Shown here in pieces: positions 1,326-19,414 of a stretch of DNA of 44,580 bases (position 1 is its first letter; every line of letters begins with the position of its first letter). The translations under genes were made by a program, and so were the position numbers. The stretch comes from a virus (taxonomy: Duplodnaviria > Heunggongvirae > Uroviricota > Caudoviricetes), in IMG/VR virus record IMGVR_UViG_2534682161_000019. One strand, given 5' to 3'. Below the pieces are notes generated by a model. The model saw nothing but the letters and a program-made list of their open reading frames with translations. It was not told the origin of the DNA and did not search any database.

Positions 1326-1359
1326 CTAAAAAACTAAGGGGTTACCATTTGGTAACCCC
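1326..1359 (-). terminator. rho-independent terminator-like hairpin downstream of the tRNA-Ser 3-prime fragment
   Basis: Perfect inverted repeat GGGGTTACC-ATTT-GGTAACCCC (1338-1359) followed on the minus strand by a T-run (A-run 1327-1332 on plus). Confidence 0.5.
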
Positions 1360-1369
1360 TTATCTTATT

Positions 1370-1429
1370 TGGCGGAAGCGCAGAGATTCGAACTCTGGAA
1401 CCCTTTCGGGTCGCCGGTTTTCAAGACCG
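1370..1429 (-). other. 60-nt 3-prime fragment of a tRNA-Ser gene (serT-like), putative prophage attachment-site remnant (attL side)
   Basis: Reverse complement reads CGGTCTTGAAAACCGGCGACCCGAAAGGGTTCCAGAGTTCGAATCTCTGCGCTTCCGCCA, which matches the anticodon-stem-to-CCA part of E. coli serT as I remember it; the 5-prime half of the tRNA is absent (sequence beyond 1429 is unrelated); integrase lies 140 bp away. Confidence 0.7.
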
Positions 1430-1569
1430 AAGAAAAATAAAGAAAAATCAGTATAATACGCAAAATAGCCGAAAAGTTAATCAGACTTAACACCAAGAAA
1501 AATCAAGATGTTAGGGAGTTATTCAGAGTTAATATACCAGGTCTTTTGCCAGAAAATTTTCTGGATTGT

Positions 1570-2589
1570 CTACTTACTGACCACAAGCGGCAAATCCAGT
1601 GTTGGCGTGATTTTGGTTTTACGATCGTAAATCAACACCTGATTTTCTGTTTTGTGTCCACTGAAAATTTGTTTGTCGCGACTGCTGCCTTCGTAATCTG
1701 AAATTCCTTTGGCTTTTATGTCATGGAAGTTGCACCCAAACGGAACACCGGCTTTTTGCTCGGCTGCACGTTTAGCCTGATTCCACCAGTTGTTCAGCGT
1801 TTTAGCTATGACCTTCCCGCCTTTGGTTGTGTTGATCACATACTCGCATGTGCCGGAAGATACATTTCGGGCTAACTGGATCGCCGTACGTAATCGTGGA
1901 GACCATTCCTTGATTTGTTTGGTGCCGGTCTTGTTTTGCTCAATGTAAATCCCTTTGTCCATAATATCCTGCCATTTCAGCTCGAGCACATCACCGAGCC
2001 TTGCCGCACAGAGATAGGATATCTCCATTGCAATACGTAACTGTGGAATTGCTTCCGCATATATCGCAGCATACTGTTCATCGGTGATGTAAACAGTACG
2101 GGCTTTAAGCGTGAATTTTCTGACTCCTTTGCATGGATTATTTTTCACATACCCACGCTCATATCCCCATCCGTATACGCGACTCAGACTTGCCAGTTCA
2201 TGGTTTGCCTGGGTCTTGCTCTCAAGCCCCCGCTTATCCATGAAAATTCTTACCTGCTCAATTTTTACATTATCAGCAAGCATTTTCCCGAATACCGCCA
2301 GTAATGCCCTTTGATGTTGCCGATAATCTTTTTGGGTTCGGGGGGCCAGTTCTGTAAATGCAGGGGAGTCCATAAACATGTGCCATAATTTAGCTACGGT
2401 CATTATGTCGTGGAGTTTTGCCTTTTCCAGTTCATAATTTTGCCAGACTTTAGCCACGCTGGTTTCCCGCACTCTTCCTAGCTTTATCGTCCTTGTGCTT
2501 CCTTTGGGCTTCCATACGTAACTGTAACCATTCGATCTAACGCGCGGTGGCAGTACATTATCTTTTTTGTCTTTTCTTGGTCTTCCCAT
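1570..2589 (-). CDS. int: tyrosine site-specific integrase (lambda Int family)
   Basis: 339 aa; C-terminal ...FHDIKAKGISDYEGS...FSGHKTENQVLIYDRK resembles the lambda Int catalytic region (GHKSDTMASQYRDDR); adjacent to tRNA fragment; overlaps the xis-like ORF. Confidence 0.9.
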   Translation of the reverse strand: MGRPRKDKKDNVLPPRVRSNGYSYVWKPKGSTRTIKLGRVRETSVAKVWQNYELEKAKLHDIMTVAKLWHMFMDSPAFTELAPRTQKDYRQHQRALLAVFGKMLADNVKIEQVRIFMDKRGLESKTQANHELASLSRVYGWGYERGYVKNNPCKGVRKFTLKARTVYITDEQYAAIYAEAIPQLRIAMEISYLCAARLGDVLELKWQDIMDKGIYIEQNKTGTKQIKEWSPRLRTAIQLARNVSSGTCEYVINTTKGGKVIAKTLNNWWNQAKRAAEQKAGVPFGCNFHDIKAKGISDYEGSSRDKQIFSGHKTENQVLIYDRKTKITPTLDLPLVVSK

Positions 2590-2809
2590 TATTCAGTGCC
2601 TCAAAATCGGGTTCAGCAGAAACCAGTTCAGATACTTTTGACATTGCTGTTAGTCCACGTGGAATATCACAGCGTAGAACTATCGGCTCGTTTTTAGGCC
2701 CGATTAAAAATGGGATGCCGTGCAGTCTTAACTGGTGTTGCTGTCTTGTGTATCGCTTGTATTTCGTGATCTCTTGAATCTCTGCTGGCGATAGAGTTAA
2801 TTCATACAT
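2558..2809 (-). CDS. xis: putative excisionase / small DNA-binding protein
   Basis: 83-aa basic ORF immediately upstream of and overlapping the int start, the canonical xis position; sequence itself not confidently recognised. Confidence 0.5.
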   Translation of the reverse strand: MYELTLSPAEIQEITKYKRYTRQQHQLRLHGIPFLIGPKNEPIVLRCDIPRGLTAMSKVSELVSAEPDFEALNNGKTKKRQKR

Positions 2810-2875
2810 GTGGTCACATGCCTTACAGCATGACCGCCGCCAATATAATTCGGAGGCGGCGATCAGGGTTGAACA

Positions 2876-5359
2876 TTAAAAATCAGCCTGACTCGGGATC
2901 AGTTTTTGTATTGTAGCTGTAACGTATTTTGCCTGGTGACGGGCGTCATCCAGTGCATTGTGGTGCACGCCTTCGAATGGAATAACGGTTCTGGCATCAA
3001 AGTCGATTGTTTTTCCCAGCTCAACGATTGTGCGTACATCGCGATCGTTGTGGTAGCGCCACGGGCAGGGGATGTCCAGACGTTCGTATGAGGTGCGCAA
3101 AATTGCGTTATCGAAAGTTGCACCATTACCCCATACCTGAACGAATTTTTCATCTGAGTATTCGTTGATGAACTCCCGAAACCGCGAAAGGGCATCCTTC
3201 AGTTTTACCTGGTCTGTTAAAATGGCAGCTCTGGCTTCACTGGACTGCTTCAGCCACCATTCGATGGTTCCACCGTCAGGAACAGCCCCTGTATTCATTG
3301 CGTCAGTCAGACTGATAACGATATAAAATACTGGCCCGATTTCCCCTGTTTGTGGGTCGAAGAAAACCGCACCAATAACCACGATGGGCGCATTGGTGTT
3401 GGTTCCCATTGTTTCAAGGTCGATCATCAGGTGGTACCACACTCTGCTGGTGGATGTGATAACGTGATGACCGTTCACCGCAATTAAGGGATCTGCCGTC
3501 TCGCCAGTTTCATTATCGCTGGCGTGGTCCTGAGCGCTGCCAGCATTCTCCTTGTGTGGATGTTCAGCGCCTTCCATTTCCTCCGGATCATTTTCCTGAA
3601 CTTCAACCTGATTCTCTTCATCGAATGTTTCCTGGTATGTTGCGTCGCCCATCACCGCACCACAATCAGGGCAGTTGCCGCCGCCGGTCTGACCGCAGGC
3701 GGTGCAGACTTTTTCCGCTTCCTGTTGCGCTACTGGCTCAGGTTGTTTCGTTTCTGGCTCGTTTTGTAACGCATTTGGGCTGTTTTGTTCCGCGTTCTGG
3801 TCGTTCTGTTCCGTTTCTTGCTGGTTCTGATTCACAGAATCGCGGGTTTCAATCCCCTTCACCCATTTCGGATCATTCGGGTCGCTAATCCCTGCAACAA
3901 ATTCACTACGTGATACAGCAAGCAACTTATCGGCGTCAGGCTGGCTGATATTGGCTGCCTGCATAATTTTGTTTACTTCGTCAGCGGTAACTTTTACCGG
4001 CTCCGGTTGTGCGATCGTGTCAGATGCACCAGTATTTTGTTGTGAACCTGAGTATGTACCGTTTTTGCGGGCAAAATATTCTTCTTTCGTGATTTCAGTA
4101 GCCCCTGCAGCCAGCGCCTTATTCAGACCAGAAAGTTTGTTTGCACGACCGTATTTTTCGCCATCCTTGTCGGTGAAGAGGAAGTAGAACGGCCCCTCAC
4201 GCTCTACAGATGATTCGACTTCCACTTTGCATTCGGTTTTTTCGTTGTCGTGAATTGCCGTTTCCACTGCGTCAGTTTCTGGTACTGGCGACGAGAGAGT
4301 ATTAGCTGTGCCCTGATTTGTTCCTTCGTCATCTTCAAACACGCCCTTTGTAGTCAGGTATTCAGTGATGTATTTGTTCAGTGCCACGGGATCTTTGTGA
4401 ATGTCGATCGGGCGTTCACGGACAAGGCCAAAAATAGTCTGGCGGCTGTAGCGAAGCGCATCAGGTTGTTTGCGCATTGATGCGGAGATGCGCTTCCAGT
4501 CTTCGCGATCTCTGGCGATAACTTCATTTTTAGCCCAGCGAAGGATGCTGCCGTCAATGTTTCCGGCATCCGCATCACCAGGCCAGAGATAGTAGGCCAG
4601 CTCCCTGTCCAGGGTTTTCCATGTCTGCTTGTATTCGCGATGAATGGCGGCAGTTACAGGAGGGATTTTTTCTGCTGGGTTTTCAGTGTGCTGTCGGTTG
4701 GCTTTGGCGCGGGCAAGATCAACAACAGACGTGTATTTTCCAGTCTCTTTGCGCTCTGCGTCCTGCCGTTTTTTCCAGTTACGTAATTCAACCTGAATTT
4801 CGGGCCATTTGGTACCCGGCTTACATTTGTGTTTAACCCATCCGATAGCGAACAGTTTGCGTTCCGGATACATAGCGTTAATTTCAGGCGTTTTCATCAG
4901 TGCTTCAACGATATGCCCGTCAAAGGTAGCCACGTCTTCTTGCAGTAATTCCTGCGCGTCAATCGCCATATCAACGGTGATGTTTTCACATGTACCGAAC
5001 TTAACCAGGACCGCGTTCTGTACTTCAAGGGACAGCTTGTCAAAATTGACGTTAATAGGATCGGATTCTGGTTCGACCGGAATAAAGGAAGCGGATTCCT
5101 CATCCCAGTGGTTTTCCTGCATATATTCGGTATCCCAGGAGTCGATAGCAGGGCGGGGCATGCCGGGTTTATCTTCGCAGACAAGAAATTTATAAGCGCA
5201 GTCCTGAGCAGCAGGATATTGCTCCAGGAATTGCCAGGTAAATTTGGCACGGGCGCGGCGTTCATCACCGGCTTCAATGGCAGTGGCTACAGCAACTGCG
5301 CCCTCTTCTTTTATTGCCTGTTCGTCCGGAATGGCGGCGCAAATAAAGACTTTACTCAT
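2876..5359 (-). CDS. large early-region protein with C-terminal DnaQ-like (DEDDh) 3-prime-5-prime exonuclease domain (type often annotated exodeoxyribonuclease VIII-like in E. coli prophages)
   Basis: 827 aa; C-terminus carries Exo I (MIDLETMGT), Exo II (WGNGATFDNAIL) and Exo III (HHNALDDARH) motifs; Cys4 ribbon CTACGQTGGGNCPDCG; low-complexity Q/N/E-rich linker. Confidence 0.7.
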   Translation of the reverse strand: MSKVFICAAIPDEQAIKEEGAVAVATAIEAGDERRARAKFTWQFLEQYPAAQDCAYKFLVCEDKPGMPRPAIDSWDTEYMQENHWDEESASFIPVEPESDPINVNFDKLSLEVQNAVLVKFGTCENITVDMAIDAQELLQEDVATFDGHIVEALMKTPEINAMYPERKLFAIGWVKHKCKPGTKWPEIQVELRNWKKRQDAERKETGKYTSVVDLARAKANRQHTENPAEKIPPVTAAIHREYKQTWKTLDRELAYYLWPGDADAGNIDGSILRWAKNEVIARDREDWKRISASMRKQPDALRYSRQTIFGLVRERPIDIHKDPVALNKYITEYLTTKGVFEDDEGTNQGTANTLSSPVPETDAVETAIHDNEKTECKVEVESSVEREGPFYFLFTDKDGEKYGRANKLSGLNKALAAGATEITKEEYFARKNGTYSGSQQNTGASDTIAQPEPVKVTADEVNKIMQAANISQPDADKLLAVSRSEFVAGISDPNDPKWVKGIETRDSVNQNQQETEQNDQNAEQNSPNALQNEPETKQPEPVAQQEAEKVCTACGQTGGGNCPDCGAVMGDATYQETFDEENQVEVQENDPEEMEGAEHPHKENAGSAQDHASDNETGETADPLIAVNGHHVITSTSRVWYHLMIDLETMGTNTNAPIVVIGAVFFDPQTGEIGPVFYIVISLTDAMNTGAVPDGGTIEWWLKQSSEARAAILTDQVKLKDALSRFREFINEYSDEKFVQVWGNGATFDNAILRTSYERLDIPCPWRYHNDRDVRTIVELGKTIDFDARTVIPFEGVHHNALDDARHQAKYVTATIQKLIPSQADF

Positions 5360-5452
5360 TTTGTTTTAACCTCATTACAGATTTAAGGGTGAACAAATCC
5401 CTGCCATTGCTGGCATATAAAAATGAAACCGGATATTAATTACGGTGCTGTT

Positions 5453-5644
5453 TTAAAGTCCTGCCGGTATTTCGTTATTATTAGTGTGAGTAGTTTTATC
5501 TACCGGATAACAGTTACCGGGAATTTTTTGTTCTGCTGCTGCAGCCATGCATTCTTTCATTGAACCGTATAAGCCAGTCACCAGCTCAAGAGATTCGCCG
5601 GAAACAAGATAAACTGTCAGAACGAGTGCAAATGTTGTATTCAT
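5453..5644 (-). CDS. hypothetical small protein (hydrophobic N-terminus)
   Basis: 63-aa ORF in the leftward early operon, stop overlapping the next gene start (ATGA). Confidence 0.4.
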   Translation of the reverse strand: MNTTFALVLTVYLVSGESLELVTGLYGSMKECMAAAAEQKIPGNCYPVDKTTHTNNNEIPAGL

Positions 5645-5829
5645 TGTTTATATCCTTTTTGCAGCAGGTCCAGACGAGCCAGCATTGAAGGAATGCATAC
5701 TTCATTTAACAGGTCCTGCTCGAGTTTTCTCTGCTTAATGGCGTCTTCAATAAATGTTTTGTCTCCAGTGATAACGCCAATTTCGAAACGAAGTTCAGAC
5801 GTGATGGCATTACATGATAACTTTTCCAT
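5641..5829 (-). CDS. hypothetical small early protein (RacC-like position)
   Basis: ORF track gives 5641-5934; the internal ATG at 5829 (MEKLSCNAITSELRFEIG...) is preceded by a GAGGA RBS whereas the 5934 start has none, so the shorter start is preferred. Confidence 0.4.
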   Translation of the reverse strand: MEKLSCNAITSELRFEIGVITGDKTFIEDAIKQRKLEQDLLNEVCIPSMLARLDLLQKGYKQ

Positions 5830-6406
5830 TATCGCGTCCTCAACAATGAATTTTGTGATGCGGTGCCTGGTGCCTCCAGGTGACGTTAACCAGTTAACAA
5901 TTAACGCCGGATACAGAGAATCCACCCATAACACTGTTTTTGGTTTTAACTGTTCCGCGTGCGCTGAGCCGCATTCACCGCATCACAAAATTCACTTTTA
6001 AAAAAGGGCGGCAGAGCAGTCACGGAGTAAAACTGATACCGCCAAATGTCACCAGAATATTGATAACAGAGGGCGTTGTAGCGGGGTTGTCACTTAAGCG
6101 TATGGTCAACCTGACAACCCGGTGTCCTCAACGGGGAAAGGCGTCCCTCCCACCCCCGCCATACTTACCGCCGCGCCATTTCGCGGGTCGCCACAACCGG
6201 AAGCGCACGGTCGAATTAAATTTAACGACACCGTGCAGTGAGACGAACTTCGCCGTGCGCTTTCGTGTTGTGTGCCTGCTTTTAACCACGTCAGGCGAGG
6301 TGGTTTCCGTCATTCCCCAACGACAGGAAATCTGTATAATCTGGGTATCCCCAACGATCCAAGGAAATCATATGACAGAGCAAAGAGCACAAGCAGGTGA
6401 TGGTGT

Positions 6407-6613
6407 ATGGACCGGGATGATATTCTTGACAGAATTTTTTATGGCTATTTTCTTGAGCAACTGTTTTCTGTAGCGACTGGTCGTCTCGATAAACTTCTCT
6501 CAGTAGTGAGTATTATCCTCGGTTCATCTGTCATTGGCGGATTCATTCCGGAAATTTCTGGCGTTTTTATTGTTGTGATCGCAACCGTCCAAACGATTTA
6601 TGGATTCGGATAA
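6407..6613 (+). CDS. hypothetical small membrane protein (rightward ORF inside the leftward early region)
   Basis: 68 aa with a long hydrophobic stretch LLSVVSIILGSSVIGGFIPEISGVFIVVIATV; opposite orientation to flanking genes, as sieB is in Rac. Confidence 0.3.
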   Translation: MDRDDILDRIFYGYFLEQLFSVATGRLDKLLSVVSIILGSSVIGGFIPEISGVFIVVIATVQTIYGFG

Positions 6614-6628
6614 AAGTCAGGTAATACC

Positions 6629-6853
6629 ATGAGAAAATCCGCAGAATATTTGCAGCTTTTTGATGATGCAGAAAAATATTCTGATTCGGAATTGAAAATT
6701 CAGTTAAAAACTCTGGAAAAAACAGATAATCATATTTGGTCATCACTTAAAGATATTGCGATCTTAAAAACACAGATCAAAATAGGCGTCTCCATCGAAC
6801 AACAAGAGAAGTTGCCCACAAAATCCAAATTGATGCGATTTCTTTGTGGTTAG
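6629..6853 (+). CDS. hypothetical protein, same frame as 6407-6613 and separated from it by one stop codon
   Basis: 74-aa ORF; ATG 15 nt after the preceding TAA. Confidence 0.3.
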   Translation: MRKSAEYLQLFDDAEKYSDSELKIQLKTLEKTDNHIWSSLKDIAILKTQIKIGVSIEQQEKLPTKSKLMRFLCG

Positions 6854-6942
6854 GAATATCCAGATTGTTAAAGAGCATGCCGGAGGTTTATCCGTGTCCG
6901 GCGCACGCACTTCATCTGCGGAGAACTACTTGAGCTCATTGG

Positions 6943-7158
6943 TCAGTAGTTTTCAATCACTCGCGAAACGTTTAATGCCGCGCTTTTTGCCAGAGTGGTA
7001 ATATCCTGCTCCGCTGACACCAGTTCTTTAGAGAGGCGCTCTTTGTAGTCAGCGGCCTGCTTCAGGTCATTAATGGCGCGTATCTTTCCGCACATCCATT
7101 CGTAAATTTCATCCTCGGTATAGTCTGGTGCGATGATGACGGGTTCTCGTTTCTGCAT
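6943..7158 (-). CDS. hypothetical early protein
   Basis: 71-aa ORF in the leftward operon. Confidence 0.4.
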   Translation of the reverse strand: MQKREPVIIAPDYTEDEIYEWMCGKIRAINDLKQAADYKERLSKELVSAEQDITTLAKSAALNVSRVIENY

Positions 7159-7187
7159 ACTGATTCCTCGAGGTGCCGCTTCGCTTA

Positions 7188-7316
7188 TCAGTCGTTAGAT
7201 TTTGCCGAACTGGAAAGCGCCTGTTTAAACTCACTGAAGCTGAGAGCTTCTTCGCCTTCGGCAAGGCCTTCGAAGTATTCTTCGTAAGCCTTTTCCATGA
7301 TTGCGTCGAAATCCAT
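7188..7316 (-). CDS. hypothetical small acidic protein (42 aa)
   Basis: Not in the ORF track (under 60 aa); ATG at 7316 preceded by AGGTGAG RBS; MDFDAIMEKAYEEYFEGLAEGEEALSFSEFKQALSSSAKSND; fits tightly between flanking leftward genes. Confidence 0.35.
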   Translation of the reverse strand: MDFDAIMEKAYEEYFEGLAEGEEALSFSEFKQALSSSAKSND

Positions 7317-7317
7317 A

Positions 7318-7554
7318 TCACTCACCTGAATTTCTTTCCAGCCAGCGACGCGCGCCAGCTTCGGTTTTAAACGTTTTGCTTCTGGTATACGTCATCGCGG
7401 TGAACGTGCCGTCCTGGTTGGGAAACACGCCGTACACCAGAGATTCGTTGTTGCCAAGATCGATAGTATCCATGCTGACCTCATTTCCCCTTAACGCCGG
7501 GGTAGCGGAACAAAAACCTGCTGCATAGTTATTAAAGTTGAACCCTGCCGTCAT
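7318..7554 (-). CDS. hypothetical protein, first gene of the leftward early operon
   Basis: 78-aa ORF; an alternative start at 7473 (MDTIDLG...) has a GAGG RBS; not Arg-rich, so not an N-like antiterminator. Confidence 0.4.
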   Translation of the reverse strand: MTAGFNFNNYAAGFCSATPALRGNEVSMDTIDLGNNESLVYGVFPNQDGTFTAMTYTRSKTFKTEAGARRWLERNSGE

Positions 7555-7649
7555 GTTCTTACGCCTCGGGCTGGCTACTTAACCCCTGACCACTGCCGGG
7601 TAACTCTAGGTATTGCCCTGCGTTCTGTGGGGCGGGGTGGGTTGGCATG

Positions 7650-7700
7650 TATATAATGTACTTTATGTTCAGTGTTGTAAAGTACTTTGAGTACATTTTA
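7650..7700. promoter_or_regulatory. leftward early promoter/operator region (OL-like) with ATGTACT operator motifs
   Basis: ATGTACT at 7656-7662 (+) and 7690-7696 (-); 13-mer ATGTACTCAAAGT on the minus strand (7684-7696) is identical to one at 8240-8252. Confidence 0.45.
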
Positions 7701-7771
7701 TGTGTAAAAAAATGAGATGGGAAAAAGTGAAGCACAAACCCGGAGGGGGACGCTACCGGATTTATGCTGGT

Positions 7772-8191
7772 TTAAGAGGCTTTTTGTTTTTTCTTTCGTG
7801 CTAACTCTTCGTAAATTGCATTGTACTTTTGTTTTTTCTCCTCAAGAGTTTTTAAAAGTTCATCTGTCTCACTGTCAGGGAGCTCGTCCAGAAGATCAAT
7901 GATGATTTTTTGTCTTGGATTTAACTCCTGATAGAAACGTACCTGTCCACTTTCTTCTGTATCCTCTCCCAAAAGATAGGTTGGTGTTGTTCCAATGAGT
8001 GTTGCTAATTCCCTTAATTTCTCTCGGCGAGGAATTGTTTCGCCATTAAACCATTTGCTAACCGCTTTTGGTGTTAATTTCATTCGACGGGCAATTTCTG
8101 CCTGCCTTCCATGTTGTTCATAACCAGCGTTTTCACAGGCTAGCGCAAGCCTACTGGCGAACTCTTTACGCGCTTTATCTTCATGAACCAT
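7772..8191 (-). CDS. prophage repressor, HTH XRE family (RacR/DicA-like, no S24 peptidase domain)
   Basis: 139 aa; N-terminal HTH (...QAEIARRMKLTPKAVSKWFNGETIP...); acidic C-terminus; divergent from a Cro-like gene. Confidence 0.7.
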   Translation of the reverse strand: MVHEDKARKEFASRLALACENAGYEQHGRQAEIARRMKLTPKAVSKWFNGETIPRREKLRELATLIGTTPTYLLGEDTEESGQVRFYQELNPRQKIIIDLLDELPDSETDELLKTLEEKKQKYNAIYEELARKKKQKAS

Positions 8192-8199
8192 AAGTTCAA

Positions 8200-8260
8200 T
8201 GATATTCGCTCTTGAATGTACTGTCAGTTCTGTTATAGCATGTACTCAAAGTTCACATTG
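8200..8260. promoter_or_regulatory. divergent promoter/operator region between repressor and cro-like gene (OR-like)
   Basis: ATGTACT motifs at 8216-8222 and 8240-8246; shares 13-mer ATGTACTCAAAGT with the OL-like region. Confidence 0.5.
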
Positions 8261-8270
8261 TGAGGGTGAT

Positions 8271-8525
8271 ATGAACCAGAAAACACTTGAAGATGTAATC
8301 AAAACTGTTCGCGTTTCTGTTGTGGCCGACGTTTGTGGTGTCAGCCAAAGAGCAATCTACAAATGGATGGATAACGGAAAATTGCCTCGCACTGAATATA
8401 CCGGCGAAACAAATTATGCTGAAAAAATCGCTCATGCATCAAACGGATTATTTTCTGCCGATGCAATTTTAACTATTGGCAGAAATAAAACTACTACGAA
8501 AAAGCTGTTGGGAGTTGATTCATGA
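8271..8525 (+). CDS. Cro-like / YdaS-family small HTH regulator
   Basis: 84 aa from the ATG at 8271 (RBS GAGGGTGA); HTH-like VADVCGVSQRAIYKWMDNGKLP; divergent from the repressor. Confidence 0.6.
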   Translation: MNQKTLEDVIKTVRVSVVADVCGVSQRAIYKWMDNGKLPRTEYTGETNYAEKIAHASNGLFSADAILTIGRNKTTTKKLLGVDS

Positions 8526-8947
8526 AAATCAAGCATGAGCACATCCGCATGGCGATGAATGCCTGGTCGCATCCGGACGGCGAAAAAGTTCCGGCAGCTG
8601 AAATAACCCGGGCTTATTTTGAACTGGGTATGACGTTTCCGGAACTGTACGACGATTCACACCCAGAAGCCCTGGCTCGCAATACTCAGAAGATTTTCCG
8701 CTGGGTGGAGAAAGACACCCCTGATGCGGTTAAAAAAATTCAGGCGTTGTTACCAGCGATCGAAAAAGCAATGCCACCTCTGCTGGTGGCCCGAATGCGC
8801 AGCCACAGTTCAACCTGGTTTCGGGAGCTGGTGGAGACGCGGGAACGACTGGTGAGAGACGCTGATGATTTTGTCGCAGTGGCGATCGCTGGTTTCAATC
8901 AGATGAATCGTGGTGGTCCGGCGGGAAATGCCGTGGTGATGCACTAA
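8522..8947 (+). CDS. YdaT-like / CII-like early regulatory protein
   Basis: 141 aa directly after the cro-like gene (start overlaps its stop); same position and size as ydaT of Rac; assignment from recollection. Confidence 0.45.
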   Translation: MKIKHEHIRMAMNAWSHPDGEKVPAAEITRAYFELGMTFPELYDDSHPEALARNTQKIFRWVEKDTPDAVKKIQALLPAIEKAMPPLLVARMRSHSSTWFRELVETRERLVRDADDFVAVAIAGFNQMNRGGPAGNAVVMH

Positions 8948-8970
8948 AAGCACGGTGTTCGGAGTTTTTT

Positions 8971-9918
8971 ATGAGCAGCAAGCTTCATGGTCTTGTCTGG
9001 GAAGGGTGTGCCTTCACCGGCATGATCTTATCCAGGGTGGCAGTAATGGCTCGCCTTGCAGATTACAGCAATGACGAAGGTGTGTCATGGCCTGCAGTGG
9101 AGACCATTCGTCGTCAGATTGGGGCAAAGAGTGAATCAACGGTTAAAGCGGCGATAGCGGAACTGGAAAAGAACGGCTGGCTGACGAAGGAGGAACGTAA
9201 GGTCGGTGGGCGTAATGAAAGCAATATCTACCGTCTTAATGTGGAAAAACTCGAAGCAGCAGCAGCGGCGGCGCGTGAGGCATATAAACCGAAAAGAAAA
9301 ATTAACCCGGTAAAAAATGACCCGTCAAATATTGACCCCTCAACGGTTGACCCCTCAAATTTTGATGGATCAACCGTTGATAAAAAACATTCGGTTAGGG
9401 GGACGATGGTTGGCCCCGATCCGTCAGTATTAAAACCTGATCCGCCAGATAAAAGATCTTCTTGTCCGGACGCTTCGCAACCGGACCCGCAGATGGCTGA
9501 ACAGGATTTTTTAACCCGACACCCTGACGCGGTTGTGTTCAGTGCGAAAAAACGCCAGTGGGGCAGCCAGGAAGATTTAGCGTGTGCGCAGTGGATCTGG
9601 GGGCGAATCGTGAGTCTTTACGAGCAGGCTGCCAGCGATGATGGCGAAATCATGCGACCGAAAGAACCAAACTGGACTGCATGGGCCAATGATGTGCGCA
9701 CAATGCGGATGCTGGATGGCAGAACTCACAGACAAATTTGCGAAATGTTTGGTCGGGTACAGCGGGATCCATTCTGGGTAAAAAACATCATGAGTCCGGC
9801 AAAACTCCGGGAAAAATGGGATGAGCTGGTTATTCGTCTGGGGCGTTCGCCTGTACAGCGTTGCGTGAATCACATTTCTGAACCGGATACCGAAATTCCG
9901 CCGGGGTTCAGGGGGTAA
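8971..9918 (+). CDS. replication initiator protein (O-like; N-terminal winged HTH)
   Basis: 315 aa; N-terminal HTH (...VSWPAVETIRRQIGAKSESTVKAAIAELEKNGWL...); internal DPSNIDPSTVDPSNFDGSTVD tract encoded by iteron-like DNA repeats. Confidence 0.6.
   Translation: MSSKLHGLVWEGCAFTGMILSRVAVMARLADYSNDEGVSWPAVETIRRQIGAKSESTVKAAIAELEKNGWLTKEERKVGGRNESNIYRLNVEKLEAAAAAAREAYKPKRKINPVKNDPSNIDPSTVDPSNFDGSTVDKKHSVRGTMVGPDPSVLKPDPPDKRSSCPDASQPDPQMAEQDFLTRHPDAVVFSAKKRQWGSQEDLACAQWIWGRIVSLYEQAASDDGEIMRPKEPNWTAWANDVRTMRMLDGRTHRQICEMFGRVQRDPFWVKNIMSPAKLREKWDELVIRLGRSPVQRCVNHISEPDTEIPPGFRG
9313..9381. repeat. iteron-like direct/inverted repeats inside the replication gene (putative origin)
   Basis: Repeated TGACCC(C)TCAA units (aaaaatgacccgtcaaat / attgacccctcaacgg / ttgacccctcaaat / tttgatggatcaaccgttga) followed by an A-run. 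Confidence 0.45.
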
Positions 9919-9960
9919 GTGTTGATTTGAGGTCATGAAGTTATTTTCTCAGGAGAGTTT

Positions 9961-10362
9961 ATGGGGGCTATTTATACCGAAGAACAGCGGGAAAGATTAC
10001 AGCGTCACATCGTTGACCTTGTACGTAAAAACGGGCGTATGAAAATGCCACAACTGGCATCGGCAACATATGCTTCACATGATTCCATTCGCCGGTACCT
10101 GAAGATGCTGGTGAGCCAGGGCGAAGTGTATGTTGTCAGCGGAAAAGGGGTATTCCTTTCAGAGAGAGTTTACCGTGAATGGCTGGCAAGTTCGGCAAAA
10201 AAATCAAGGGTTATCCGCAAACCAGCACAAAAACAGGGTAAGGCCGGAGTACAACCCTACGACCGGCACCAGAACGTAATTTGCCGGGAATGTCGTAACA
10301 GCGAATCAATGCAGCGGGTACTGGCTTTTTACCGGGGTGGATTTCAGGAGCTCGTATCGTGA
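9961..10362 (+). CDS. hypothetical protein
   Basis: 133-aa ORF; ATG preceded by AGGAGAG. Confidence 0.45.
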   Translation: MGAIYTEEQRERLQRHIVDLVRKNGRMKMPQLASATYASHDSIRRYLKMLVSQGEVYVVSGKGVFLSERVYREWLASSAKKSRVIRKPAQKQGKAGVQPYDRHQNVICRECRNSESMQRVLAFYRGGFQELVS

Positions 10363-10667
10363 AAAAGTGGGTGCGTGCCGAGATACTGATTCTACGGCAG
10401 TGTGCGGGAACAATGACGGTGGAATGTATCGGGATGCTTATTGGTCGTAGTGAGGCTGCGGTCAGAACGAAAGCGCGGGAACTGGGTATTAGTATGATGT
10501 TACGGGGTGATTATCACCAGTCAGCAAAATATCCGCAGAGTGATATTGAGCTGGCGCGACAGCTGCATCAGCTTGGCGTGTCCAGGAGAGAAATCGCCAG
10601 AAAATTTGGAATGCCGCTGCGCACAGTGAATAACTACGTTTATTTCGACAGGAGGGTGTCTGCGTGA
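10359..10667 (+). CDS. hypothetical HTH-containing protein
   Basis: 102 aa with two HTH-like stretches (GRSEAAVRTKARELGIS and GVSRREIARKFGMPLRTV); start overlaps previous stop. Confidence 0.45.
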   Translation: MKKWVRAEILILRQCAGTMTVECIGMLIGRSEAAVRTKARELGISMMLRGDYHQSAKYPQSDIELARQLHQLGVSRREIARKFGMPLRTVNNYVYFDRRVSA

Positions 10668-10897
10668 AAATCCTGTATCAGGATTACGGCCCGGTGGGAC
10701 AGGTGGTTATCAGCAGTACTGTAATGGAGTTCCGGAAGCATAACCGTGTGGTGGATGCAGTACTGTTAGCCTGTCCGGGGATATCGGCGAGCCGTGCAGG
10801 TGTGTTTTTTATGAAGACGAAGTTATATGGCAGTACAGCGTGGATAAAGAAGGCGTACCGGGTAGCGTTACAGGAGGTAAACAGTGAGCGAAATTAA
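10664..10897 (+). CDS. hypothetical protein
   Basis: 77-aa ORF translationally coupled to its neighbours. Confidence 0.35.
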   Translation: MKILYQDYGPVGQVVISSTVMEFRKHNRVVDAVLLACPGISASRAGVFFMKTKLYGSTAWIKKAYRVALQEVNSERN

Positions 10898-11345
10898 CTG
10901 TCAGGCACTGCGAGAGGCGGCAGAGAAAGCAACTAAAGGAAGCTACATCGTAGGGCATACGTCTGTTAACCAGCATGGCAATTTAACAGGAGTTTTTGTT
11001 TGTCAAAAATGGAAAGGAGAACCCGGTGGCGTGATTGCAGAATGTCATGTTAACTGCCTGGTTGAAACAGATGCTCAGGCTTACGCAAACGCTGAATTTA
11101 TTGCTGCCTTTAATCCAAAGGTTGCGCTGGCGATACTGGATAAGCTGGAAGCTAAAGACAAGCGCATTGCAGAACTGGAGGCGAGGGAAATCCAGTTACC
11201 TGCTGGCTTCGACCTTCGATATGGACACCCGATAAATGCTGATGAGCGACATGTGATGATACCTAAAGAAAATGGCAACTGGATTCATCGGACTGACTTA
11301 GAGCACTCACTACGTGTTGCAGGGATTCGTATTAAAGGAGACTAA
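10884..11345 (+). CDS. Ead/Ea22-like protein
   Basis: 153 aa; resembles the Ead/Ea22-like family common in E. coli prophages (recollection only); coiled-coil-like middle. Confidence 0.4.
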   Translation: MSEINCQALREAAEKATKGSYIVGHTSVNQHGNLTGVFVCQKWKGEPGGVIAECHVNCLVETDAQAYANAEFIAAFNPKVALAILDKLEAKDKRIAELEAREIQLPAGFDLRYGHPINADERHVMIPKENGNWIHRTDLEHSLRVAGIRIKGD

Positions 11346-11346
11346 C

Positions 11347-11703
11347 GTGGAAATAAAACCAGAAGATGAGTTAAGTAATATTGTTTTATTTCCGGTAAAA
11401 GAGGATGACCCACGTAATCAGGTTAATTTTCTTTATGAGCCATCGGAAAGACCATATTGTCATCACGACTCTGTCCGGGTTGACGAAAAAGAGCGTCAGG
11501 TCCGCTGTAAAATCTGCGGTGCAGTTGTGGAGCCATTTGACTGGATGCTCTCTGTGGCGAAAAGAGAAACCAGACTGGCAGATGATGTAAGGATCTTGCG
11601 CCAGGAGGAACGGGAAAGGCGGAGAAATATAGAAAAGCTAATTCAGATTGAGCGTAACGTGAAAGCGCGGATACGCAGGGCGACAAAATCCAGAACAGAA
11701 TAA
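11347..11703 (+). CDS. hypothetical zinc-ribbon protein
   Basis: GTG start 7 nt after a perfect AAGGAG RBS (track gives an upstream overlapping ATG at 11314); CHHD...CKICG Cys/His cluster; Arg-rich C-terminus. Confidence 0.45.
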   Translation: MEIKPEDELSNIVLFPVKEDDPRNQVNFLYEPSERPYCHHDSVRVDEKERQVRCKICGAVVEPFDWMLSVAKRETRLADDVRILRQEERERRRNIEKLIQIERNVKARIRRATKSRTE

Positions 11704-11751
11704 TTAAATTTAGCACTGTTAAAAATTTAATCCTTAACCGGAGGTATATCA

Positions 11752-11946
11752 ATGTCAAACGCACAGAAAGTTATTAACGCTGAAAAATATAACGAGTGGG
11801 TGAAAAAGTTCTCAGAGCAGATTTTTAAAATTACTGGCGACGAGAATGCGGCAAAAAATGAATTAGAGCCGTGGACACCTGAAGGTGTCGCCCCAAATTA
11901 TTGCTGGTGGATGTTGATCCAGTTGATGCTGCAAATGAAGCGATGA
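11752..11946 (+). CDS. hypothetical protein
   Basis: 64-aa ORF; GGAGG RBS upstream. Confidence 0.4.
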   Translation: MSNAQKVINAEKYNEWVKKFSEQIFKITGDENAAKNELEPWTPEGVAPNYCWWMLIQLMLQMKR

Positions 11947-11998
11947 GTTATCACAACGATTAATGTCAGGAGGCCGCCCGAAAGGGCGGTAATGAAAA

Positions 11999-12689
11999 GT
12001 GACTGAATTAACCAAAGAGCAATTAATCGAAGAAGCCAAATTAAAAATAGCGATTGCGAAATGCCACCCCAATTCAGGGATGGCACGGGTAGAGGGCGAG
12101 TTATTCAAAATTGCACTGGCATCGCTGGTAGCAGAACCGCTGGTGCCCGTCATGTATAAAGGAATGAAACTGTTAACAAAAGAGGGGCTTGAGCTTATTC
12201 GTGACGGTATTGCGGAGGCTACGGGACTGGAAGCAATGTGTATGGCTGATGCTTTGCTGTCTGGGGGGGGGGGCAGTGCCGTCAGTGCCGAAAGAAATGT
12301 ATTGGCAGGATGCACCAGTTGAAAGTAGCAGCAAAGCAGCTGCATACGCTACAGGCTGGAAAGCCTGCCGCGAAGCCATGCTTCAGTCCGGAAACTTTCG
12401 GGATAATAAGAATTCGTCAACCAACAATTTTCGGGAAATCCCGGAAACGTCAACCAGCTCTCAGGGAACTCCGGCTGGCTGGATAAGCTGTAGTGATGCA
12501 GTTCCTGCTGAATATTGCGATGTGATTCTGCGCGATGATCTCGGGAATGTATTCCCCGGTTCATGGGATAAGGTTTTTTGCCCCACTCGTGGCGGGAATA
12601 AGATGGCTTTTGTGGACAAAGACGGCGTCGAAGTAGAGAGCTCAACCCACTGGATGCCGCTACCAGAATCGCCGAAGGTGGTGAAGTGA
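11999..12689 (+). CDS. DUF551-like protein interrupted by a frameshift at a G11 homopolymer (possible pseudogene, phase-variable gene or sequencing artefact)
   Basis: ORF 11999-12322 and ORF 12189-12689 are in different frames and join across GGGGGGGGGGG at 12263-12273; removing one G gives a continuous ~229-aa protein ending ...WMPLPESPKVVK. Confidence 0.45.
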
Positions 12690-12762
12690 TGGAAAATGAA
12701 TTCGAAAATGCTATCGCCACGGTGCAGCCAAAATCAATAGTTGAGTAGACTTACTCTGAGGC

Positions 12763-12791
12763 TTGACTACGAGGTTACCATTAGGTGTAAT
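12763..12791 (+). promoter_or_regulatory. sigma70-like promoter upstream of the AT-rich island
   Basis: TTGACT (12763-12768), 17-nt spacer, TGTAAT (12786-12791). Confidence 0.4.
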
Positions 12792-12863
12792 TTAGAGTAA
12801 GTTGGTAGCCTCAGTTGTCGAAGAGGCATAATGGTGATTGTTAGTTGATGCAATAATTAAGGA

Positions 12864-13355
12864 ATGTTAATGCCTACTAATGCTGAACAACCAGTATCAA
12901 TTAGTAAACCGAAGACCGTTACACTTCGTGCTTTTGAAATAAAAAACACTGCACTTTCGAAAAGTTCTAGCGAAGCTAAGGCCGATTTGATAGCAAGGCT
13001 TAGTCAAGTAAAACAGGCAAAAGATAGATGCATGTTGTTAAATCCAGAAGATCCTAAGCAGGAAAGAGATGTTCTTTCGTATTTTAAAGAATCTCCTGTT
13101 ACTGATTCAGTATTTTGCACTATGTTAAGGATTACATCTGACAAAGAAATCCAACACATAACAGATTCTCTTTTTGAGAAAGAGGTCTTTTCTCTGGATG
13201 ATATAGAAACATCTCATTTAGATGTGTCAGCAATATGTAAAGGCCATTACTATTTTTGCATGAGTGATGATTTTTTAGTTACAAATCTCCCATTAAATAA
13301 AACGATTGTGCGTTTACAAACGTATCTGAGTTGGTTTACAAATAATGAGCTTTAA
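12864..13355 (+). CDS. hypothetical protein, first gene of the AT-rich island
   Basis: 163-aa ORF; AAGGA RBS favours the second ATG at 12870; no recognised motif; AT-rich codon usage unlike the surrounding prophage. Confidence 0.5.
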   Translation: MLMPTNAEQPVSISKPKTVTLRAFEIKNTALSKSSSEAKADLIARLSQVKQAKDRCMLLNPEDPKQERDVLSYFKESPVTDSVFCTMLRITSDKEIQHITDSLFEKEVFSLDDIETSHLDVSAICKGHYYFCMSDDFLVTNLPLNKTIVRLQTYLSWFTNNEL

Positions 13356-13370
13356 GAATTCACCCCACTA

Positions 13371-13883
13371 GTGTCAGCAAAAGGGAAAACGAAACTTAGT
13401 GATTTAAAAGCCATAATCGTTAAAGATCCAGAACCGTTAGTACCGACTGCTATGTGTGATGAGTCTGGTGTTAGAAGTAAAAAGGGAGAAATTACGGTTA
13501 GCGAAGGTCATAAATCTATCAAGTTAACACAAAAAGTTCTGGATATTATCAGGAGTTCGATGTCAGACTCTGAACAACTTAATGATATGATGCTGAGTCA
13601 AATGATTTCTGCTGAATTGTTAATAAAATTTAAAAAGCCACGCAGAATGACAGATGATGAATATAGTAGAGCTTTAGGGGCTTATTTGAAACCCGTTAGC
13701 GATCTTGATAATGTATCATTTAAGCGAAAAGATAACAAAACAGAAGTGAAAGGCAAGGATTTGCTGTTAACAAAGTCTGTAAGTATTGAAACGACACAGT
13801 CAGGTAAATTAGTTGAGCATCATTTGCTACAAGAGATGAGCAAGTTTTTGCTAGAGTTAAGCAATGAAAAAAATAGCGGTTAG
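13371..13883 (+). CDS. hypothetical protein, second gene of the AT-rich island (same frame as the first, separated by one TAA)
   Basis: 170-aa ORF with a GTG start and no clear RBS; in-frame continuation of 12864-13355 across the stop at 13353-13355. Confidence 0.45.
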   Translation: MSAKGKTKLSDLKAIIVKDPEPLVPTAMCDESGVRSKKGEITVSEGHKSIKLTQKVLDIIRSSMSDSEQLNDMMLSQMISAELLIKFKKPRRMTDDEYSRALGAYLKPVSDLDNVSFKRKDNKTEVKGKDLLLTKSVSIETTQSGKLVEHHLLQEMSKFLLELSNEKNSG

Positions 13884-14325
13884 CGTATTATCAATATTGC
13901 TGCTCACATTGTTGGCTAGTTCAGTCTGGGATGTTCGTCCGGACGGTTTTTTTGCGTCGACAGTTTTTACAATTTCTGGAATAATGTTCTCAATTGGATT
14001 AGGGCTAATTGTGAATTTTAGCACATCCGGTGTAAGGAACCGTGGATACATTCTGCGTATTAGACGTAATGTAATGAGGGTGAGGAATTCATTTCTATTA
14101 TATTTTGGTTTGTCGACTTTTTCTTACATAGCAAATCAATATCTTACTGCTTTTGAGTTTTCTTTAACCTTTGGTGATGGTATCAAAACATGTTTTAGCG
14201 CATCCATATTCTTTTGCTTGCTTATAATTTATTCCTCTATATATTTTGTTGTTAATTTTATAGAGTTGCAAAAACTCAATAATGATATTTTTGATAAAGT
14301 CAATGCGGAAATAACTAACAAATGA
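13864..14325 (+). CDS. hypothetical integral membrane protein (about 4 TM helices), third gene of the AT-rich island
   Basis: 153 aa; hydrophobic segments SVLSILLLTLLASSVW, VFTISGIMFSIGLGLIVNF, FLLYFGLSTFSYIANQYL, FSASIFFCLLIIYSSIYFVVNFI; overlaps the upstream ORF by 20 nt. Confidence 0.55.
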   Translation: MKKIAVSVLSILLLTLLASSVWDVRPDGFFASTVFTISGIMFSIGLGLIVNFSTSGVRNRGYILRIRRNVMRVRNSFLLYFGLSTFSYIANQYLTAFEFSLTFGDGIKTCFSASIFFCLLIIYSSIYFVVNFIELQKLNNDIFDKVNAEITNK

Positions 14326-14523
14326 AATGGCTTTTGTGTGCATGTTAAATAAAGAATACATGGCATCATTTAATGATGTCATGTGTAACGAGCGAAAAGC
14401 CTTTTGAACGGTTTTCATAAGTTATATTGAAAGATAAAATTGCTGCGGGTGCTTGAGGCTATCTGCCTCAGGCATGAACACCAACGGCAGATAGATAAAA
14501 GCCCCACCCGACTATAAATCGAA

Positions 14524-15194: not shown

Positions 15195-15195
15195 C

Positions 15196-16245: not shown

Positions 16246-16257
16246 AAGAGGTTACTG

Positions 16258-19260: not shown

Positions 19261-19336
<76 letters not shown>

Positions 19337-19339
19337 TAT

Positions 19340-19414
<75 letters not shown>

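Follow-up and report, generated by a model that had tools for sequence, protein, structure and literature searches.

The segment at positions 7653-8532 of the analysed DNA (the whole stretch of 44,580 nucleotides, hereafter the window) is in all probability the immunity switch of a lambdoid prophage, assembled as a mosaic of known modules and operating by the mechanism proposed below. Its overall logic is that of the textbook lambdoid switch, and nothing found here alters it. The ATGTACT motifs flanking the repressor gene, which an earlier note had taken for repressor operators, are half-sites of five longer dyads, and their assignment as putative operators of the adjacent HTH repressor is well supported, both by a matrix derived from phage HK022 alone and by the conservation of the layout in relatives.

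Five 17-bp sites on both sides of the repressor gene

Copies of ATGTACT were found at 7656-7662 (+), 7690-7696 (-), 8216-8222 (+) and 8240-8246 (+), exactly where the earlier note had placed them, and a fifth copy at 2552 (-) is the sole other one in the 44.6-kb window. The count itself is unremarkable (five seen vs 2.9 ± 1.7 expected); it is the clustering that is unusual, because four of the five copies sit within about 300 bp of non-coding DNA on either side of one gene, that of the repressor. The four copies are real half-sites, but the presumed binding unit is not the 7-mer; it is the 17-bp near-palindrome (A/T)TG(T/A)ACT-N3-AGT(T/A)CA, which occurs at five sites, not four:

7656-7672, no strand: predicted operator OL1, ATGTACTTTATGTTCAG; PWM rank 3, score 17.0
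7680-7696, no strand: predicted operator OL2, AAGTACTTTGAGTACAT; PWM rank 4, score 15.9
8183-8199, no strand: predicted operator OR3, ATGAACCATAAGTTCAA; PWM rank 1 in the whole window, score 21.0
8216-8232, no strand: predicted operator OR2, ATGTACTGTCAGTTCTG; PWM rank 5, score 15.2
8240-8256, no strand: predicted operator OR1, ATGTACTCAAAGTTCAC; PWM rank 2, score 17.5

The lambda-like OL/OR logic suggested earlier thus stands as far as the OL-like and OR-like clusters are concerned, but OR contains three sites rather than two, the one at 8183-8199 having been missed.

The ranks were obtained with a matrix (PWM) built from five phage HK022 sites alone, which were read from the HK022 sequence and compared with secondary descriptions (PMC8053113). 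When it was scanned over 44,564 window positions, the sites at 8183, 8240, 7656, 7680 and 8216 were returned as matches 1-5, with scores of 15.2-21.0 against 12.5 for the next-best position in the window and a mean top score of 12.9 for shuffled windows. No site in the window beyond these five rose above the noise of the matrix as an equivalent of HK022 OL3 or OFR, a weak match at 8939-8955 scoring 9.

The 13-mer ATGTACTCAAAGT, reported earlier from both flanking regions, is indeed present exactly at 7684-7696 (-) and 8240-8252 (+), and nowhere else in the window. Its standing as a meaningful shared unit was not borne out: a 13-mer match between OL-side and OR-side sites is seen in only 5 of 83 related loci, and the identity arises because the two sites chance to carry the same variable N3 spacer. 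The 13-mer has no conserved significance.

The repressor combines an HK022/933W-type N-domain with a DicA-type C-domain

7772-8191, minus strand: immunity repressor, 139 aa, HTH_3 domain

The HTH repressor recognised earlier was confirmed as an open reading frame with an HTH_3 domain, and in it a linker joins an HK022/933W-type HTH N-domain (aa 1-75) to a DicA-type helical C-domain (aa 88-139). The N-domain is identical to that of HK022 CI at 44 of 74 positions (59%, E 6e-32), and the recognition helices are near-identical, TPKAVSKWFNGE here vs TPKAISKWFNGE in HK022. In the 933W repressor, K42 and K46 were modelled as base-contacting residues, and the K46A variant lost specific binding (PMC3317979); both lysines (933W numbering) are conserved here, and the residue at position 41 is P both here and in HK022. 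The homologous N-domain with K42/K46, the G(A/T)AC(T/C) core halves, the 3-bp operator centre and the placement of OR3 on the start codon are together those of HK022/933W-type CI systems.

The remainder of the protein is DicA-like. DicA is matched by blastp over aa 30-137 (E 5e-15), phrog_5736 covers aa 27-139 (E 9.5e-20), and the AlphaFold2 model contains a helical hairpin at 92-138; a Foldseek comparison of this model with the PDB returned only generic XRE/HTH matches, at E 1e-3 or weaker, and was uninformative for the C-domain. An S24 peptidase is absent from the 139-aa repressor, which has no PF00717 match and whose C-domain aligns to DicA and not to S24; therefore, the protein is an HK022/933W-type CI by its DNA-binding domain only and not a full-length member of that family. 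An HTH N-domain joined to a DicA-like helical C-domain of ~50 aa, with no peptidase, is the composition of the DicA-type short prophage repressors.

Since the C-domain is of the DicA type and not S24, the switch should not respond to RecA-mediated cleavage, and induction would be either spontaneous or brought about via an as-yet-unfound antirepressor. A tblastn search with Qin Rem gave no match to a Rem-like antirepressor in the window, and the ORF 14916-15194, located at the rem-equivalent position, is unrelated to Rem and has no function assigned in PHROGs. PHROGs likewise revealed no antirepressor among seven further early-right and mid-region ORFs and the three switch proteins. Ten CTG-N10-CAG-like matches to the LexA box were found, none of them upstream of a plausible antirepressor.

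Predicted promoters and a terminator-like hairpin

7653-7681, minus strand: predicted PL, -35 TTTACA (7681-7676), 17-bp spacer, -10 CATTAT (7658-7653), from a consensus scan
8199-8227, minus strand: predicted PRM, -35 CTGACA (8227-8222), 17-bp spacer, -10 TATCAT (8204-8199)
8212-8241, plus strand: predicted PR, -35 TTGAAT (8212-8217), -10 TG-n-TATAGC or TAGCAT (8231-8241), read from the sequence
7731-7768, minus strand: terminator-like hairpin just past the repressor stop, next to a U-rich tract at 7722-7727

On the left side, OL1 falls in the spacer and -10 of the predicted PL, and OL2, 24 bp from OL1, overlaps its -35. The TTTACA hexamer adjoins OL2 in HK022 too, and the DNA of the OL region shares 80% identity with HK022 OL. 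A lambdoid switch has a second operator cluster, OL, over a leftward early promoter beyond the repressor gene; such a cluster is present here and is kept in relatives. PL is predicted to drive ydfA-ydfB-ydfC-dicF-dicB leftward.

On the right side, the gap between the divergent repressor and cro genes is 79 bp, and the dyads at 8183, 8216 and 8240 overlap the predicted PR and PRM. OR3 is centred on the ATG start codon of the repressor and shares 16 of 17 bases with the HK022 site that lies on the HK022 cI ATG; OR3 of 933W is annotated at the equivalent place, over the repressor start. OR2 is separated from OR1 by 24 bp and from OR3 by 33 bp; it falls within the spacer of PR and on the -35 of PRM. 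OR1 covers the predicted PR start site.

The best promoter-like match of the region is PRM, with 10 of 12 consensus positions, and the -10 of HK022 PM is found in the same place. Its predicted start is at or beside the repressor ATG, and no Shine-Dalgarno sequence is present; therefore, the repressor mRNA would probably be leaderless, for which cI and paaR2 provide precedents (PMC8630535). Lambda-like positive autoregulation cannot be assumed, because OR2 is centred at about -33 relative to the predicted PRM start, over the PRM -35. The -10 of PR is weak (TATAGC/TAGCAT), and the 89% E. coli variant does not preserve it well; in HK022 and the Salmonella relatives, CATAAT occupies the corresponding position between OR1 and OR2. 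As this promoter lies below the threshold of the promoter scan, we infer PR, the presumed promoter of cro and ydaT, from its sequence and position.

The hairpin at 7731-7768 has a folding energy of -19.4 kcal/mol (z = -4.8), which none of 200 shuffles equalled, and across relatives its stem is conserved and its loop variable. It is probably the equivalent of tImm, shielding the PL operon from PRM read-through. The PL leader RNA (7474-7646) showed no significant structure (z = +1.1).

Cro, YdaT and the leftward operon

8271-8525, plus strand: Cro, 84 aa, HK022-type; GAGGGTGA Shine-Dalgarno before the ATG at 8271
8522-8947, plus strand: YdaT, 141 aa, CP-933P-type; PF06254; phrog_163 'CII-like activator'
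8515-8532, no strand: predicted YdaT operator (OM-type), TTGATTCATGAAAATCAA, at the cro stop and ydaT start
5641-7473, minus strand: start of the PL operon, with ydfA (7318-7473), ydfB (7188-7316), a ydfC-like gene, dicF sRNA (6006-6057) and dicB (5641-5829)

Both downstream genes named earlier, the Cro-like and the YdaT/CII-like one, were confirmed. Cro aligns with HK022 Cro from residue 1 onward at 62% identity (E 1e-34); DicC gave no match to it, and that of YdaS was marginal (18 aa at E 0.028). In comparison with the PDB, YdaT matches 3c4r (E 2.6e-88) and 8bt1, the CP-933P YdaT chain (E 3.8e-80). The CP-933P protein was shown to be a CII equivalent, its status as a toxin being unconfirmed, and its operator was defined as TTGATT-N6-AATCAA (PMC9986795). 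The only exact copy of this operator in the window is 8515-8532, at the cro/ydaT junction, and a YdaT operator is found at -341 in 83 of 83 loci. With both the family sequence and fold match and the operator at this junction, YdaT here is, on the strength of its sequence, the functional equivalent of CII, and 8515-8532 is likely the control site of a PRE-like leftward promoter.

Toxicity of 8271-8947, which the earlier note had anticipated upon loss of the repressor, is consequently not expected from a YdaT of this CII-equivalent type. The toxic cargo is likely dicF/dicB, known as such and located on the PL side of the switch (PMC10448788), in the leftward operon. The genes of this operon were assigned according to the RefSeq annotation of a 99.8% identical locus and a Rfam DicF match of 77 bits; farther left of 5641, a ydfD-like gene is followed by an exonuclease.

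Relation to known switches

Beyond the similarities of N-domain, recognition helix, Cro and OL DNA already given, HK022 has the same operator consensus, the 24/33/24-bp spacing, the TTTACA -35 of PL and OR3 on the cI ATG. It differs in its 235-aa CI with S24 autocleavage, in its distal OL3 and OFR sites, whose equivalents are undetectable here, and in carrying a conventional CII and Nun in place of YdaT and the ydfA-dicB operon. The spacing is shared with Kp4864-1 and Omnitron as well, whereas a 933W-type record has 24/32 at OR; every one of them has OR3 over the start codon.

The switch of the Stx phage 933W likewise has three OR and two OL sites, an N-domain 49% identical with K42/K46 kept, and operators, annotated in GenBank as CGTACTTTCAGTACG, TGAACTGAAAGTTTT and CGTACTCATGGTTCA, with the same G(A/T)AC(T/C) core. 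In contrast to the system described here, its repressor, which binds non-cooperatively (PMC3317979), has S41 instead of P41 and an S24 C-domain, and the outer operator bases are CG... instead of TG....

The DicA/DicC system of the Qin cryptic prophage, the induction of which is SOS-independent (PMC10448788), resembles the present one in its short repressor with a homologous C-terminal domain and no peptidase, and in the repressor gene being followed by a promoter for ydfA-ydfB-ydfC-dicF-dicB. The DicA N-domain, however, is only 25% identical, DicC is unrelated to Cro here, the Qin operators TTGTTAGT...ACTAACAA bear no relation to those of the window, and the window has no homolog of the Rem antirepressor. 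With the CP-933P paaR2-ydaS-ydaT module are shared YdaT, its operator at the junction of ydaT with the cro equivalent, a short leaderless CI without a peptidase domain, and OR and OL clusters; the PaaR2/YdaS operator consensus GTTTAGTAA is unrelated, Cro is of the HK022 type and not YdaS, and no TA module follows the repressor in the window.

A different account was implied when the region was called Rac-like: a RacR-YdaS-YdaT module would recognise the 7-mer, twice on each side, and the 13-mer, and the cro-like gene and ydaT would be toxic. The gene order is that of racR-ydaS-ydaT, YdaT belongs to the same PF06254 family (31% identity to Rac YdaT), and the early-left leader is 86% identical over 157 nt to the racR-ydaG spacer. 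The resemblance ends there, since neither the repressor nor the Cro equivalent nor the operator sequences are homologous: RacR matches the repressor over a 33-aa HTH stretch only (E 1e-4), YdaS has no real match to Cro, and the Rac intergenic region carries TTAGGC-type repeats with a best PWM score of 9.5. The sites here are 17-bp dyads of the HK022/933W type, with a third one at OR, the 13-mer is confined to a few loci, and YdaT of the CP-933P type acts as a CII equivalent, its toxicity being unproven. We regard this account as improbable. Rac-type and Qin-type operators were both rejected as models for the sites, as both regions use unrelated repeats.

Conservation and relatives

The earlier note had proposed a motif search across related prophages, and its expectation of conservation was upheld: the layout recurs, the half-site cores are conserved and the spacer drifts. 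The top five PWM matches reproduce the five-site layout in phage Tritos, in Salmonella loci with short repressors (62-65% identity) and in the 89% E. coli variant, and the layout also recurs in long-CI phages. Among 85 loci, variation is seen in 5 of 40 half-site core columns vs 39 of 96 of the remaining non-coding columns (Fisher p = 0.0012), and within the operator it is greatest in the N3 spacer. A site at the OL1 position is kept in all related loci and the one at -65 from the repressor ATG (OR1) in every relative; OR2 is invariant among 16 OR haplotypes, and across 44 haplotypes OL2 has conserved half-sites and a variable N3 spacer.

These data also bear on the view that the 139-aa repressor is the decaying remnant of a truncated CI in a cryptic prophage and the motifs are relic operators that have lost their function. 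In its favour, an S24 domain is present in all the other phages with this N-domain (HK022, 933W-type, Kp4864-1 and Omnitron). But the C-terminal 50 aa form a distinct DicA-homologous helical domain that is kept in the Salmonella relatives (30 of 52 residues identical), the half-site cores vary less than the surrounding non-coding DNA, and 410 of 5,426 complete E. coli genomes (~8%) contain at least 80% of the query region. Moreover, Tritos, a plaque-forming temperate phage, has a 'CI repressor' with 100% identity to the one here, and in the Tritos lysogen expression of this CI is 24-fold over background (PMC9928086). Decay is thus very improbable.

That the repeats are products of chance or of AT-rich similarity to -10/-35 elements, with no dedicated binding protein, is scarcely credible: the total of ATGTACT in the window is not above chance and the sites overlap promoter hexamers, but the five best matches to an external matrix all lie here, their position and spacing are kept across genera despite different surrounding intergenic sequence, and conserved cores around a variable spacer are the pattern of a dimer binding site.

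Proposed operation of the switch and its significance

In the lambdoid switch that we favour, the 139-aa repressor would bind as a dimer to the five 17-bp quasi-palindromic operators. OR1 and OR2, 24 bp apart, sandwich the PR -10 and overlap the -35, and for this reason their occupancy would shut off cro and ydaT; OR3, 33 bp further on, lies over the repressor -10, start site and ATG, and its occupancy would result in negative autoregulation. Because OL1 and OL2, also 24 bp apart, cover PL, their occupancy would silence the early-left operon ydfABC-dicF-dicB, and the hairpin terminator past the repressor gene would keep PRM transcripts out of this operon. Cro, being of the HK022 type, is expected by analogy to bind the same sites as the repressor. 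YdaT bound to TTGATT-N6-AATCAA at the cro/ydaT junction would increase leftward repressor synthesis during establishment.

The result is a testable operator map, comprising five sites, three promoters, a terminator and a YdaT site, for an immunity type that some 8% of complete E. coli genomes share with Tritos, a functional phage of the Crohn's-associated strain LF82. It also illustrates that lambdoid switches are built from exchangeable parts: here the specificity module is of the HK022 type, the oligomerisation/induction module of the DicA type, the CII module of the CP-933P type and the early-left operon of the Rac/Qin type.

A more far-reaching possibility, which we put forward tentatively and consider rather unlikely, is that the switch is SOS-blind and flips spontaneously or via an undiscovered antirepressor, and that its repressor cross-represses HK022-immunity phages, forming a one-way shield that gates dicF/dicB. 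If true, the resident repressor might block superinfecting HK022-immunity phages while ignoring DNA damage.

The make-up of the switch may also account for the absence of Tritos from the prophages that genotoxic antibiotics were reported to induce. The only LF82 prophages named as induced by ciprofloxacin were Gally and Cyrano, and with trimethoprim the production of Tritos fell slightly (PMC9928086); we infer the lack of ciprofloxacin induction of Tritos from this naming of other prophages only.

In the Salmonella relatives, the repressor gene is followed by HigB/HigA, a place at which the window has no TA module. A scan of genome contigs returned a single locus, in a Shigella flexneri genome, encoding an identical protein.

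Predicted operators of the repressor

The operator sites of the HK022 immunity region, as read from its sequence, follow the pattern (A/G/T)TG(A/T)ACT-N3-(A/G)GT(A/T)CA. A symmetrised weight matrix derived from five HK022 sites only was used to scan the whole window (44,564 positions), and the five best matches were the following 17-bp dyads.

8183-8199: OR3, rank 1 of 44,564, score 21.0
8240-8256: OR1, rank 2 of 44,564, score 17.5
7656-7672: OL1, rank 3 of 44,564, score 17.0
7680-7696: OL2, rank 4 of 44,564, score 15.9
8216-8232: OR2, rank 5 of 44,564, score 15.2

The sixth-ranked match scored 12.5, and the mean top score in shuffled windows (n = 200) was 12.9. The reverse complement of OR3, TTGAACTTATGGTTCAT, shares 16 of its 17 bases with the HK022 site located on the HK022 cI ATG, and the centre-to-centre distances (OR1-OR2, 24 bp; OR2-OR3, 33 bp; OL1-OL2, 24 bp) are the same as in HK022. 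Two extra matrix matches in HK022, one in the cro-cII interval and a weak one 53 bp from OL2, agree with the published OFR and OL3 (PMC8053113), which supports the reading of the HK022 sites used for the matrix. Homology, statistics and conservation strongly support the prediction, made in the earlier note for the ATGTACT motifs, that the flanking repressor uses these sequences as its operators, arranged in OL and OR clusters as in lambda.

The ATGTACT motifs (7656-7662 and 8216-8222 and 8240-8246, plus strand; 7690-7696, minus strand) and the exact copies of the 13-mer ATGTACTCAAAGT (7684-7696, minus strand; 8240-8252, plus strand; no others in the window) were all found where the earlier note had placed them. 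With one further copy in the 44.6-kb window, the total of five ATGTACT motifs is not unusual (2.9 ± 1.7 expected); the unusual feature is the clustering of four within approximately 300 bp of non-coding DNA flanking one gene on either side. A repeat finder joined the motifs into longer in-register units with 24-bp spacing on both sides of the repressor. Since the HK022-matrix scan ranked five dyads 1-5, the 7-mer proposed as the recognition unit is a half-site, and the full unit is the 17-bp dyad. Similarly, the count of two sites per side has to be revised, because OR holds three; the site on the repressor start codon (8183-8199) had been missed. The significance of the 13-mer likewise needs correction; it reflects a common spacer, and just 5 of the 83 loci compared share it.

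Conservation among related immunity regions is also found. In all short-repressor relatives covered, the top five matches were found at equivalent places, with OR sites at -65, -41, and -8 relative to the repressor ATG and, downstream, a pair of OL sites with 24-bp spacing. These relatives are phage Tritos, whose repressor is the same, an E. coli variant with 89% identity, and two Salmonella short repressors (65% and 62% identity). Kp4864-1 and Omnitron, phages with a long CI, share the OR layout of the window. Among 85 loci whose repressors are almost identical, 5 of 40 columns varied in the half-site cores vs 39 of 96 in other non-coding DNA (Fisher p = 0.0012, which is approximate because the loci are related to each other), and the 3-bp operator spacer was the most variable class. 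Of 5,426 complete E. coli genomes, 410 contain at least 80% of the 1.7-kb core. In both Salmonella loci, OL lies beyond a HigB/HigA-like toxin-antitoxin pair situated between the short repressor and OL (L010, 3553-4220; L011, 3588-4255), a position paralleled by paaA2-parE2 behind PaaR2 in CP-933P.

In 933W, five operators are present and OL3 is absent; the conserved bases at operator positions 2-5 are G, A/T, A, and C, followed by T or C at position 6 (Bullwinkle et al., PMC3317979). A GenBank entry covering an immunity region of the 933W type lists three OR sites, with OR1 given as CGTACTTTCAGTACG, OR2 as TGAACTGAAAGTTTT, and OR3 as CGTACTCATGGTTCA.

Isolated perfect half-sites, TTGTACT and AGTTCAT, occur at 7821-7837 and 7847-7863 within the 3' portion of the repressor gene with weak matrix scores (≈ 9 and ≈ 7), the second also being found in Tritos. 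The weak operator-like sequence ATGCACTAAAAGCACGG at the ydaT stop (8939-8955; score 9, within noise) is probably due to chance, and the distal OFR of HK022, downstream of cro and before cII, is only loosely comparable to it.

Repressor and Cro

7772-8191, minus strand: repressor, 139 aa, HTH_3
8271-8525, plus strand: Cro-like HTH protein, 84 aa, preceded by GAGGGTGA

The repressor matched HK022 CI over aa 4-102 (47.5% identity, E 6e-32) and DicA over aa 30-137, a stretch that takes in the C-terminal part (28.6%, E 5e-15); the Cro-like protein aligned with HK022 Cro from its first residue (62% identity, E 1e-34), and the pairwise comparison with DicC gave no match. The assignment of the switch to a Rac-like family could not be maintained: RacR matched the repressor over 33 aa only (E 1e-4), the match of the Cro-like protein to YdaS was marginal (18 aa, E 0.028), and the Rac and Qin intergenic regions reached at best a matrix score of 9.5, with repeats unrelated to the window sites.

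Multiple alignment and per-domain identity counts divide the repressor into two distinct parts. Its N-domain (aa 1-75) belongs to the HK022/Kp4864-1/Omnitron/933W type, shares 44/74 residues with HK022, 55/75 with Kp4864-1, 54/75 with Omnitron, and 37/75 with 933W, and contains the recognition helix TPKAVSKWFNGE. The modelled base-contacting residues of 933W are S41, K42, and K46, the model being confirmed by the S41A and K46A mutants (PMC3317979); K42 and K46 are present in the window repressor, and position 41 is P, as in HK022. The C-domain (aa 88-139) aligned with DicA and short Salmonella repressors and gave no alignment with the S24 peptidase domain carried by all long CIs. Residues 27-139 matched phrog_5736 (PHROGs). 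In the AlphaFold2 model, five helices form the HTH domain, residues 77-87 a disordered linker, and residues 92-138 a helical hairpin; a Foldseek search of the PDB returned only generic XRE matches. The one notable feature of the switch is that an HK022/933W specificity domain is combined with a C-domain of the DicA type, predicted to be non-cleavable.

In the Tritos record (L003; OV696610, 2245-2993), Cro is annotated as 108 aa with a start inside OR3/PRM, and YdaT is named "Rha family transcriptional regulator"; the 84-aa form of Cro has a Shine-Dalgarno sequence, and its alignment with HK022 Cro begins at residue 1. Both the start and the label are probable annotation errors.

Predicted promoters and terminator

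8227-8199, minus strand: predicted PRM, CTGACA-17-TATCAT, the best promoter-like site of the region
8212-8217 (TTGAAT) and 8231-8241 (TG-n-TATAGC or TAGCAT): weak putative PR, identified by reading the sequence
7681-7653, minus strand: predicted PL, TTTACA-17-CATTAT, overlapped by OL2 and OL1

The position of PRM agrees with the HK022 PM -10 marked in PMC8053113. Its predicted start is at or adjoining the repressor ATG and no Shine-Dalgarno sequence is present, which implies a leaderless repressor mRNA, as described for lambda cI and paaR2 (PMC8630535). OR3 overlaps the last base of the predicted -10, the start site, and the ATG. Lambda-style activation cannot be assumed, since OR2 lies over the predicted -35 with its centre at approximately -33. 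At the position of the PR -10, HK022 and Salmonella carry CATAAT.

A hairpin 3' of the repressor stop codon (7731-7768, minus strand; dG -19.4 kcal/mol, z = -4.8), accompanied by a U-tract (7722-7727), is probably a tImm-like terminator insulating the PL operon; its stem is kept and its loop variable across relatives. It was missed by a simple terminator scan.

YdaT and the early-left operon

8522-8947, plus strand: YdaT, PF06254 family
6006-6057, minus strand: DicF sRNA (Rfam, 77 bits)
5641-5829, minus strand: dicB, in the operon controlled by OL/PL

YdaT is 31% identical to Rac YdaT and matches PDB 3c4r (E 2.6e-88) and the CP-933P YdaT structure 8bt1 (E 3.8e-80). CP-933P YdaT is a tetrameric CII equivalent that stimulates a PRE-like promoter and protects TTGATT-N6-AATCAA at the ydaS/ydaT junction, and its proposed toxin role is unconfirmed (PMC9986795); the suggestion that 8271-8947 is toxic when derepressed needs correction in this respect. 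The sole exact match to this pattern in the window, TTGATTCATGAAAATCAA, lies on the cro stop/ydaT start (8515-8532), and the position of the pattern is unchanged in 83 of 83 related loci.

The leftward minus-strand genes are ydfA (DUF1391), ydfB, ydfC-like, DicF, dicB, ydfD-like, exonuclease, and integrase. With DicF and dicB under OL/PL, derepression is predicted to inhibit cell division, as in Qin.

Induction

The repressor has no S24 domain and has the DicA C-domain in common with DicA, which is not induced by mitomycin C and is relieved by the Rem antirepressor, spontaneous switching, heat, or urea (PMC10448788). Neither a Rem homolog nor an annotated antirepressor was found within the window; the ORF at rem's Qin position (14916-15194, phrog_1212) is unrelated to Rem. 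Tritos, from E. coli LF82, makes plaques; its CI transcript in the lysogen is 24-fold over background, spontaneous release is ≈ 3 × 10^6 genomes/mL, trimethoprim slightly lowers its production, and the only LF82 prophages reported as ciprofloxacin-induced are Gally and Cyrano (PMC9928086). This behaviour is compatible with an SOS-independent switch, short of proof.

Mosaic structure

In its OL DNA the window shares 80% identity with HK022 OL, and in its PL leader 86% with the racR-ydaG spacer of Rac; the YdaT module is of the CP-933P type and the early-left operon of the Qin/Rac type. The closest E. coli relative, OkiPb01695, is 99.3% identical to the window over 1336-21159 only, and the left flank (1-1335) and late region (21160-44580) differ, so recombination has placed the early/immunity half on a different backbone. 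Given this partial match, and since Tritos, with the same immunity module, is a siphovirus (PMC9928086), the module moves between different prophage backbones. The switch type is already known, and the locus adds a new example.

Other elements in the window include a sok antisense RNA (14447-14596, plus strand; Rfam, 103 bits) with a hok-like ORF (14537-14749), a LexA-box-like sequence, CTGTAAAAATATCCAG, at the start of a DNA-methyltransferase-like gene (18607-18622), an STnc100 sRNA match close to the left end (273-465, plus strand), and two tRNA genes (19261-19333 and 19340-19411, plus strand) in the late-regulatory region of the prophage.
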